DNA of 64,000 nucleotides from Amoebidium appalachense (GCA_963693365.1 CAVNZM010000004.1:13535928-13599927); one strand, 5' to 3'. Numbered from the stretch's first letter, positions 1-29,742 are shown. Numbers and translations: made by a program. The notes: generated by a model not told the origin, from the sequence alone.

Positions 1-3000
1 AGCAGATGCAGCTTGTGGTGGAGGCCGGTAGCGATTCCAATTTAGGGAAATTACGGGGGGTTCCTGAGGGGCAGAAGGCATACATTCAAAAAGTCAGTGC
101 ACTCACGGAGGAGCTACGGAAAGACCCATACTACCCGTTCGCGAGCAAACCCGAGGTAAGCTGAACAAGGCGCTCCCCCCCCCCCCCCCCCTCCCCCACC
201 CCCCCCCCCCCCCCCCCCCCGGATCCGAGCCCCCCCCCCCCCCCCTCACACACACACACACACACACACACCTCCATCCCCCCCCCCCCCCCCCTGCCCT
301 CCCTACCGTGACTGTACCATGAAAACCCGCATATGAAACCCGCAAGGTATTATGCGTGTGAACCACACTGAAAGCTAGAGCGATGCACCGTGACATGCAC
401 ATTTTGACATCCATGTGCTCTCCCCTTGTTTACACTGTCTGTACATGTGCAGGCTGATTTGGCCGAGTTCTTCCACGAGAACAAGACCTCGAATGCAGCC
501 GCTGACCGCCTCCTGGGGATCATGGGAGAGCACGCCAGTGACATCCCCAACCCTCTTCCCAAGAAGGTCAAGCACATTCATGACAAGATAGACAATCTAC
601 TCCCCGGCCTGGTAAGCTGTTTTACATCTGCATGCCAACCGCGCGCACGGTCGTGGGTAGATCGGGTAGATCTTGATCCGCTCAGGCTATACTATAAAAG
701 TAATGTTTAAGCTTTAGCCATTCGTCGATCTACTAGATCAGATCCATTTAGGTATGTCATTGGCGGATCTATACAATTATCTAACCTCCACATTCCAATT
801 AGATCCACGCAGGAACTTCAACGCCTAAAACTTTGTGCCTGCGTACGATCTTCCCGGTTTCTGCACATGCCTAATTTAAAAATCGAACCTAACACAATAT
901 GCACACAGGAATTCTCGCGCTTGAGCGTGGATCTTGACATGCACGGTGTGAAACCCCTCGACGTCATGTATAGGGACATTGGAGACTGCATCCAACGCGT
1001 GCTCCTTCATCCCTCTCTAGGCCGCGAGGGCGGCATCACCTACAAAACGGAATTCCCAGTGGACGGGCTTGGGCGCCGGGTGTACAAGGACAACATGGAT
1101 GGAGACTGGGCATTGAGGGAAGAATTGCAAATACCGGTCGGGGGCACTCTTATGTCTCTGATCATATACTCAGATCAGACACAACTGACGCAGTTTGCCG
1201 GCAAAAAGGCGTATCCGGTGTACGTGTCGTTGGGGAACATCAACAAGGACGTGAGGTCTGGCGATTGGTGCAGGTATGTTAAGCAACTCAGATCCCCAAC
1301 GTTGTACTGGCGTGTTACCATGCATGCACCGTGCATGTACTATAAATGAAGCAATAACATCCCCATGTATACCTCCGGGATGGAGATACTCATGATCACG
1401 CGTGCGCATGCATAGCGCGCAGCTGTGACCGGGGGGAGAGGGGAAGGGGGGGGGGGGGGGGGGGGGGGGGGGGGGGGGGGGGGGGGGGGGGGGGGGGGGG
1501 GGCTCACAAAAATGTATGAAGTATGTCGAGCATATGTATGTACGGTATGTACTAATACTAACCTGGTGATTGCATGCATATGCATGCTAATGCAGGCTAC
1601 CGGTTGCATACATCACAGAGCTGGAGTTCAAGGACAAGGCTTCAGAGGGCATCAAAACCAAGGCCCGGCTGAAGCTGTTCCACCACGTTCTGGACATGGT
1701 CGTCGGGGGAGCCCCTGCGGGAGATGAATGAGCGGGGTCGGTGGATGTTCTGTGGAAGTGACCACAGATGGCGGCTTTTCTACCCACGAGTGTCGTACTA
1801 CATCACTGATTGGCCGGAGGGGCGCAAAGTGACCTGTACCAGGTGCTCTTCCCACTCACACTCACACGCGCGCGCGCGCGCGCGCGTACACGTGCACACA
1901 CACACACACACACACACACACACACACACACACACACACACACACACACACACACACACACACACACACACACACACACACACACACACACACACACACA
2001 CACACACACAAAACACGTGTGCTTTTACCTCACATATTTAGTGAATAAAATGATATGTTTCTGATGCTTTTATGTGCTCCATATCTACCCCACGAAGGCA
2101 CATAATGTTGTCAGAAATCCAGTACTTTTACCAAAACCATAGACTTCTTTCGTTGTAACTAATACCAAGTAACCTTTTCAGGAGTGGTACCACTACTTCG
2201 AGCCCTTGCCATCAGTGTTGGGAGAGTGACGAAACCCTGTATAGGGTTTGGGAGCCGGCCGACCTGAAAACAGAAGAGTCGGTGGCGCTGATTTACGAGA
2301 AAGTCGCTGAGCTGCGCGCAACCGGGCAATCGGCAGTAGCGACCGCTCTACTGAAGCGGGCCTCGCTTCAGGATTTCACGGACAATGCATGCCGTGGTTT
2401 CTCTGGCTTCAAATGGCTGTGGGGTGTCCCTGTCGAACGCATGCACCAAGCCGACAGTGGTGTATACAAGCAGATGCTCGTCGAATACAAACTATACGTG
2501 AAGTACGTGTGCGAACAGCGACATGGTGGGGCCTGTCAGGCCGCCGACGCGGAGGCCAAGGATCTTATCCGGGAGTTTGATCGCCAATTCAACGACATCC
2601 CACGTTTTCACGGACTCAGACACTTCACCGGATCGGTGTCTGACTTGACCTTCCTCCGTGCCAACGAGTACAGAGACATCATGAAGGTACAGAGACTAAG
2701 CCCCCCCCCCCCCCCCCCCCCCATGTTTCATATCCCCCCCCCCCCCCCTCCGCCTGCCACCCCCCCCCCCCCCCCCCCCCAAAACCCTAACCCCCTTGAA
2801 GCCAAGCAAGGGTTATAAAGCAGAACCCTAATCACATTCCACCTTAACGCAGGTCATGCCTTTCGTGGTCCGTGACCTACTTCCAGACGCTTCGGCAAAC
2901 ATCAAAGCCGAGAAGGTTTTCGTTGGTTGGAATGAATGGTACATGGCCGTCACCAAGAAGGAATATACGGATGATGCACTCGAGAAGATAACCGAGTTGT

Positions 3001-28838: not shown

Positions 28839-29742
28839 GTAGAGACCGTTTTCTGTTCTGATATTGGAGAACTGTCTGATAGTGATAGCAAATGTCATTC
28901 GAAGAACAATCGGGAAACCCCGTGGTGTGACAACCAATCAGAATGAAGCAAGCAACGCTTGCCTTTGCCTTTTTTGGCTACTGAGGTTTCTTGATTGGGT
29001 AATTTGTATCATCAATAGTGAAGCTATTTCGATTGGCTCTTCGAATCATCGCCTCATTGGGTGGAAATACACCAATTATCTTTCAAGAAAGCATAATTGT
29101 TATGTATTCCACAGAGTCTGTCTGGCGCTGAATCTTGACTGCAACCAATAAAAGCTGCAGCCGAGAGAAGCCTTGATCAGTCTTCCCTCACTCAGCGCCA
29201 CCTATACCCAACCCATCCCGCCCGCGTCTTCCTTTTTGCTCTCACTCAGTTTCTGTTAGCTTGCACTCACGATCGGCACTTAGATTTAGGGTAGTACTGC
29301 CTTGTGAGTGCAGGCTTTCATCTTTATCGATCTCTTTGCGATTGACTGGCAACTGATTTGCCGATCCCAGAGCCGATCTCAGCCGATCTCAGTTGTCAGA
29401 GCTCAAATAAAGTTGAAAGCATTTGGATTCTCAGAAGCCAATCGTTGGAATGTGTCGGCCCAGACCTGGCTGCGCTGAGCGCAGCAGGCTGCTGGCCGCG
29501 CCCGGCCGGCGGCAGGCTGACCGAGTCAGTGCTTGTAGCTCACAGTGAGTCTCGGTTCCGCATGAGGGATGATGCTGTCACCAGGATCCTGATGTTATGT
29601 GCGTTAGCAAGATGACCCTAAGGTAGTCTATGCATTTTATAGAAGGCATAGGCTCTAGACTGCTGTCCTTGCCGTCTGCTTTGTTAGGATCTTTTGGGAG
29701 TGCACCGAACGTTAACCACTTGAATTCAATCTCGTGGGGACG

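Follow-up and report, generated by a model that had tools for sequence, protein, structure and literature searches.

Does a transposon of Amoebidium appalachense carry a histone demethylase that could keep the transposon itself from being silenced? The question is raised by a stretch of 64,000 nucleotides (GCA_963693365.1, CAVNZM010000004.1:13535928-13599927; called the window below), in which one block contains genes for both a Plavaka transposase and a KDM4-like JmjC protein. The initial annotation had described positions 1 to 28900 as a giant, cargo-carrying transposon that had captured the demethylase to erase repressive marks on itself. The block from 1 to 28950 is here read, at a probability of about 0.55, as belonging to a single giant Plavaka DNA transposon that was active recently, of which it would form the right-hand 29 kb. 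Cargo-bearing Plavaka elements with other epigenetic cargo, in fungi and red algae, and KDM4-like genes of Amoebidium are already in print. What is new is a sharp mobile-element end at 28950/28951, whose depth is some 40-70 times that of single-copy sequence, together with the apparent lack of the insertion at this site in one other strain.

The right-hand end and the transposase

Public sequencing contigs from four runs (X1, X8, X17 and X19) were aligned to positions 28690-30290. In three of these runs (X1, X8 and X17) the contigs stop at 28951, and the flanks that follow are many and different. The last shared base is 28950/28951 (...GAATGAAGCA|A), the boundary being ambiguous by one base; the end of the block has to be moved here from the annotated 28900. 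The end contigs of X1 have depths of 1570 (identical) and 1090 (variant) compared to 23.3 for the host contig, which is 67 and 47 times as much, and the end contig of X8 has a depth of 389 compared to 10.2, or 38 times. Contig depth is not copy number and is read here as tens of copies of the end, which occupies positions 28736-28951. The family that is deep in X1 runs on leftwards past 28734. The single contig of X19 that could be aligned lies in a separate low-copy repeat and is uninformative on the end. An end at 28945 (..AATG, with a CA..TG consensus) was considered and rejected, as the contigs of three runs continue to 28951.

The strain represented by X8 likely lacks the insertion at this site. 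Record 15 of that run (depth 10.8) matches 28951-29075, and its 458 further letters to the left do not match. This candidate empty site is one contig, in which 4 letters differ and 9 are gap letters, with an orientation read as for record 11 of X19.

The sequence next to the end was followed by a search for shared words, which covered 21920-31000 and thus started 220 bp upstream of the start of the JmjC gene. Among the 24 runs listed for this interval, 20 contain all or part of it and nine contain half or more. Run X17 has the end at a depth of 2-3 and no cover to the right of 28960 within 28690-30290. Its share of the words is nevertheless 0.24; the last 261 bp account for 0.03 and the host part, 30291-31000, for no more than 0.085. 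In four runs of unstated kind with only 2-3 million letters, the share is 0.41-0.49. Because these shares at low coverage far exceed what the end alone would give, a good part of the inner cargo at 21.9-28.7 kb is probably also high-copy.

TGGCCA(C/G)A motifs are clustered in both orientations at 28736-28838, which is 110-215 bp inside the end; of 11 matches across the window, four fall there. Subterminal motifs that bind the transposase are a feature of En/Spm-type elements. The terminal bases, ...GCA, read TGC inward and resemble the TG..CA of PlavakaA with a different third base, the fungal termini given in the available text of PMC12730594 being TGT..ACA (PlavakaA) and CATCA..TGATG (PlavakaB). 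There is no inverted copy of the end within the window. If the end is part of a terminal inverted repeat (TIR), its partner must therefore lie to the left of base 1, and the element includes both genes. A scan for the terminal pattern gave no match in metagenomes and one in viral contigs, a chance 20-mer.

The transposase gene occupies positions 1-6616 on the plus strand, its 5' part lying to the left of the window. It was delineated from a Pfam match, splice sites and alignment to a further Plavaka transposase, L002. The nine exons within the window (1-155, 453-611, 909-1273, 1596-1842, 2182-2686, 2853-3007, 3264-3468, 3744-3996 and 5934-6616) are separated by introns that all have GT-AG borders (8/8). 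Two of the 16 pieces scanned match PF18759 (E 2.4e-21 and 0.0013; 76.8 bits compared to a cut-off of 26.3). There is a single frameshift, in a G run near 1705, and once this is read as X the model runs for 907 amino acids without a stop. Residues 91-588 align with L002 at E 4e-28. The catalytic triad is formed by the D of SDQT, the D of TDWPE and the E of SWERAH, each aligned with its counterpart in L002. Also aligned, reading through the frameshift as X, are a CxxC and an HxxxH that lie after the second D and before the E, in agreement with the description of Plavaka-group transposases in PMC12730594 as DDE enzymes that have C(2)C and H(3-4)H motifs in this position. By sequence comparison, the protein is a member of the Plavaka (CMCT clade) family in which all three catalytic residues are kept, and the Plavaka DDE transposase of the initial annotation is upheld. 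A 375-bp tandem array of 4.1 copies (4143-5666) is situated inside the last intron. A metagenome scan with the transposase gave one distant locus among 105 candidates. L002 (L002:3270-4730) is a degraded, distant Plavaka transposase (24% identity) in a metagenome contig.

The KDM4-like JmjC protein

The JmjC gene lies on the minus strand at 21700-16615 and was delineated from the PF02373 match (E 3.1e-12), splice sites and ligand spacing. It has seven exons (21700-20776, 19914-19580, 19518-19396, 18036-17930, 17772-17568, 17372-17137 and 16704-16615) and GT-AG borders in 6/6 introns; tandem arrays of 47-bp and 66-bp units are found in the introns, and a 78-bp array (16201-16617) adjoins the stop codon. 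A single frameshift is present in a C run near 17180, giving a model of 673 amino acids with an X at this point. The protein consists of an N-terminal region of about 190 residues, a Gly/Glu-rich linker, the JmjC domain and a zinc site of KDM4 type. The N-terminal 193 residues match no Pfam family, and their predicted fold has a pLDDT of 35.

The residues required of a KDM4 enzyme were compared with those of KDM4A, the numbers of whose iron, 2-oxoglutarate and zinc ligands were taken from the available text of PMC6010108. The iron ligands H507, E509 and H600 are spaced as His188, Glu190 and His276, and the 2-oxoglutarate ligands Y446, N517 and K526 as Tyr132, Asn198 and Lys206. Likewise, Y496, N614 and K565 are spaced as Tyr177, Asn290 and Lys241. 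The zinc ligands C558, H564, C632 and C634 (C-x5-H ... C-x-C) are spaced as Cys234, His240, Cys306 and Cys308; the C-x-C lies downstream of the frameshift as the window is written. In its sequence, the demethylase claimed for this gene has retained its catalytic and zinc ligands. A protein of KDM5 type, P0001, lacks the Cys six positions before the His of the zinc site. Assignment to KDM4 is favoured because the zinc site is complete, whereas the KDM5-type protein is without the first Cys.

Some points weigh against this assignment and the activity it implies. Exon 6 scores better on KDM5 structures (E 3.4e-12) than on those of KDM4 (1.7e-9), and exon 5 matches KDM4D at E 0.65 only. The equivalents of Ser288 and Arg309 of KDM4A are Ala and Gly, and the substrate of the enzyme is for this reason not fixed by the sequence. 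A search for relatives of exon 6 retained one of 34 candidates, a snail protein of KDM5 architecture, so that close relatives are missing from the database searched. A JmjN domain had been annotated as well; the Pfam scan of exon 2 gave no match, and the likeness to JmjN is by eye only. The PHD and Tudor domains that are C-terminal in canonical KDM4A-C were not found, the model ending about 40 residues past the zinc site. From its predicted architecture the protein is described as KDM4-like, and probably not as an orthologue of canonical KDM4A-C.

Origin of the block and proposed role of the demethylase

Between and around the two genes, the block contains a nested long terminal repeat (LTR)-type insert, five orphan genes and no fewer than eight tandem arrays. 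Five or six orphan genes, private minisatellites and an absence of housekeeping genes had been claimed. Five orphans are present, a Pfam scan of which gave no family above cut-off, the arrays are confirmed, and ordinary host genes start only to the right of 29.4 kb; the LTR-type insert and both frameshifts had been overlooked. Pfam scans of pieces of 1-28.9 kb gave no host genes and no other integrases. This supports the reading of the block as one element, as does the finding that the end is nowhere repeated in inverted orientation within 1-28.9 kb. The claim of a giant transposon carrying cargo gains support from an end that is sharp, high-copy and apparently polymorphic between strains, and from the lack of a second terminus between the genes.

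Several facts speak against one element. The left end of the putative element, its TIR and its target-site duplication lie outside the window, and the terminus that is seen exactly matches neither published Plavaka end. A second family (X8 record 13, X17 record 10) has only the last ~215 bp (28737-28951) in common and differs to the left of them, so that full-length copies do not necessarily follow from a high-copy end. The contig data cover only 28690-30290, by alignment, and 21920-31000, by word shares, and runs X10-X15 are of unstated kind and could be RNA. The block is unlike the published Amoebidium Plavaka giant repeats, which are intron-poor and have tyrosine recombinases; PMC11244446, in its available text, places KDM4-like genes in giant-virus insertions; and the open reading frame (ORF) at 27948-28430 leans weakly to viral clusters. 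Finally, the transposase and the JmjC gene are both frameshifted as written in the window. The homopolymer positions of the frameshifts suggest long-read errors and not decay. Position 28734 is A in the window and C in every covering contig of X1, X8 and X17, being either an assembly error or a change private to this copy; together with three homopolymer breaks, this mismatch suggests poorly polished multi-copy DNA rather than decay.

The KDM4-like gene might instead belong to the right end of a virus-derived insertion, either a giant endogenous viral element (GEVE) or a smaller virus-like element, in or beside which a separate Plavaka element landed. In that case the virus would use the demethylase to counter silencing by the host, as is proposed for viral KDM4-like genes and H3K9me3 in PMC11244446. 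We consider this origin rather unlikely. The available text of that paper describes multi-exon KDM4-like genes with a KDM4-type JmjC domain and without PHD or Tudor, located in 52 viral insertions that are polymorphic between isolates and that in some cases contain secondary transposable elements; the present gene resembles them in its exons, its domains and its polymorphic insertion. The number of those insertions is close to the copy number of the 28950 end, a match that could be read either way. The four or five intronless orphans of the block, two of them ~35 bp apart, a small Cys-rich protein of membrane type, and the ORF at 27948-28430 would also suit a virus. This ORF has a score of 0.81 with clusters whose members are 83-100% viral, one of the clusters having DUF5763 in 15% of its members, and counts as a lead only, as do all scores below 0.9 in the cluster atlas.

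The GEVE genes are credited to giant viruses, whereas the present gene is downstream of a Plavaka transposase, in a block with a sharp high-copy end, and no viral marker family was found in any scanned piece of its 1-28.9 kb. None of the five proteins tried has a relative in IMG/VR, a search that reaches close relatives only. There are only seven genes in 29 kb, compared with the highly gene-rich viral regions described in PMC11244446. Since 1-28.9 kb shows neither giant-virus core genes nor a gene-dense, intron-poor layout, a viral origin appears less probable on gene content; decayed viral insertions are noted in PMC11244446, so that the missing core genes only lower its standing. Tens of identical ends with different flanks are more in keeping with a transposon than with viral insertions, which are heterogeneous and decayed, and the CCAAT-rich regions upstream of genes in the block resemble those of host genes.

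Alternatively, two or more units may be adjacent or nested, a Plavaka element ending at 6.6-9.4 kb being followed by a separate JmjC-bearing element that ends at 28950 and is non-autonomous or mobilised differently. The AT-rich spacer at 6617-9040, which contains an old ~480-bp duplication (7582-8046 and 8096-8562, 72%), is a possible place for such an internal end. Nesting is demonstrated once in the block by the LTR-type insert, the 28950 end is common to at least two families, and the fungal PlavakaA records in the available supplement of PMC12730594 are ~8 kb long. Nevertheless, this arrangement is improbable: with no inverted copy of the 28950 end in the window, an element with TIRs must start to the left of base 1 and thus contain the transposase, and no other recombinase was found in the block. 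That the host has domesticated the JmjC gene as a single-copy paralogue lying in repeat-rich intergenic DNA, with only the last few hundred bases being MITE-like (a miniature inverted-repeat transposable element), is very improbable, for although a couple of genes of the KDM4-like kind lie among normal host genes in the available text of PMC11244446 and the introns and GC content at third codon positions (GC3) of the JmjC gene are like those of host genes, it is flanked by orphans and arrays and not by host genes, the site is likely empty in X8, and word shares in the low-coverage runs are far above the contribution of the end alone.

If the block is one Plavaka element, its transposase would bind both element ends, including the subterminal TGGCCA(C/G)A motifs, and would move the whole block by cut-and-paste. 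Copies of the element would be silenced by DNA methylation, which is demonstrated for Amoebidium transposable elements in the available text of PMC11244446, and likely also by methylation of H3K9. Repressive histone methylation (likely H3K9me2/3) would be stripped by the KDM4-like enzyme, which is without the reader domains found in KDM4 of the host, and removal of the mark would keep the element's own genes transcribable. The N-terminal region of the JmjC protein or a small cargo protein is a candidate for aiming the enzyme at the private tandem arrays. Given one element, such an anti-silencing role is somewhat more probable than not. More tentatively, and at less than even odds, we propose that a Plavaka element with tens of near-identical copies, which still moves between strains, encodes an active anti-silencing demethylase of the KDM4 family, that part of the Amoebidium KDM4-like expansion credited to giant viruses is its cargo, and that it may carry the gene back and forth between viral genomes and the chromosomes of the host. 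A transposon-encoded factor that lifts the silencing of its own element is known from VANDAL elements, which are of Mutator type; the factor, VANC, is a sequence-specific DNA-binding factor and not a captured histone demethylase.

The initial annotation had pointed to both KDM4-like genes and Plavaka giant repeats in Amoebidium. Both are described in the available text of PMC11244446, there as separate things. The giant repeats are tens of kb long, flanked by a Plavaka transposase and provided with orphan-like genes, as is the case here; unlike the present block they consist of tandem intron-poor gene clusters with many tyrosine recombinases, none of which were found here, and that text mentions no JmjC cargo in them. 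In the red alga Bostrychia (bioRxiv 10.1101/2025.02.11.637652), giant Plavaka elements are 17-19 kb long and resemble the block in having accessory genes that modify chromatin or DNA, with tandem arrays beside the cargo gene and a proposal of self-modification. Their cargo is different, being an N6-adenine methylase/SET protein and a ParB/2OG-oxygenase, and "JmjC" occurs 0 times in the available text. The TET/JBP-bearing PlavakaB and PlavakaA of fungi (PMC12730594) combine the same transposase family with an Fe/2OG eraser of a silencing mark. That eraser targets methylcytosine in DNA and not histones, and "JmjC" again occurs 0 times in the text available. A targeted search of the open-access literature found no DNA transposon with a KDM4-type eraser of histone methylation, and nothing on Zisupton together with JmjC.

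Transposon cargo that erases DNA methylation (TET/JBP) or writes histone marks (SET) has thus been printed already. If true, the present proposal would bring H3K9 into the chromatin arms race between host and transposon, and would do so in a relative of animals that can be cultured. It would also account for the host-style introns of KDM4-like genes, a puzzle noted in PMC11244446, and would shift the view of who captured the gene, a transposon or a virus.

Other cargo and the host surroundings

One orphan is an intronless ORF of 627 amino acids with a CCAAT-rich upstream region (9406-11289, minus strand). It has no relative among 1.84 billion representatives or in further relative searches, and its predicted fold has a pLDDT of 35. 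A small gene (12115-15209, plus strand), whose product of ~130 amino acids has a hydrophobic stretch and ends in a Cys-rich CxxC tail, is split by the non-coding LTR-type insert at 12341-15035. The direct repeats of the insert (12341-12946 and 14430-15035) are 606 bp long and 99% alike, with TG...CA ends and a 5-bp target duplication, CTGCG; the insert appears young, and a purine-rich tract precedes its second repeat. An ORF of 86 amino acids (15244-15504, plus strand) starts ~35 bp past the stop of the small gene.

Divergent from the JmjC gene is an orphan gene with Pro-rich and coiled-coil parts (23874-25138, plus strand). It is written in two frames that overlap (23874-24836 and 24587-25138), and a break at a C run near 24630 may have divided what is one gene. 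The ORF at 27948-28430 (plus strand, 160 amino acids) has two small Cys/His clusters, and in a relative search none of 176 candidates scored. Further tandem arrays are situated at 11640-11991 (seven copies of 50 bp, 99% alike) and at 25484-27347 (units of 52, 109 and 203 bp, and of 131 bp).

The window is eukaryotic and intron-rich, and almost all of its introns contain poly-C/G and CA/TG runs; its gene content and intron style agree with the account of the ichthyosporean Amoebidium in PMC11244446. CpG depletion and GC3 are alike in the block and in the host genes, and neither tells them apart. To the right of the block are genes for an acid sphingomyelinase-like protein (29.9-34.0 kb, plus strand), a MAGE-domain protein (37.0-43.4 kb, plus), a bZIP protein (44822-45580, minus) and a PAP2-family protein (~50.3-54.2 kb, minus).

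A second CCAAT-rich repeat, at ~29008-29443, lies between the end of the element and the first host gene. Its depth in X1 is roughly 10 times that of single-copy sequence, and it occurs in several contigs and many variants with loose ends at 29441-29443; it may serve as the promoter of the adjoining host gene. A dispersed repeat of ~310 bp is found in inverted copies at 34609-34915 and 49669-49974 (98%), with a weaker copy at 50962-51057. Its ends are beside G/C and A runs, and it is like a MITE or a short interspersed nuclear element (SINE). The AT-rich interval 46400-47000 may contain fragmented coding sequence on the plus strand.

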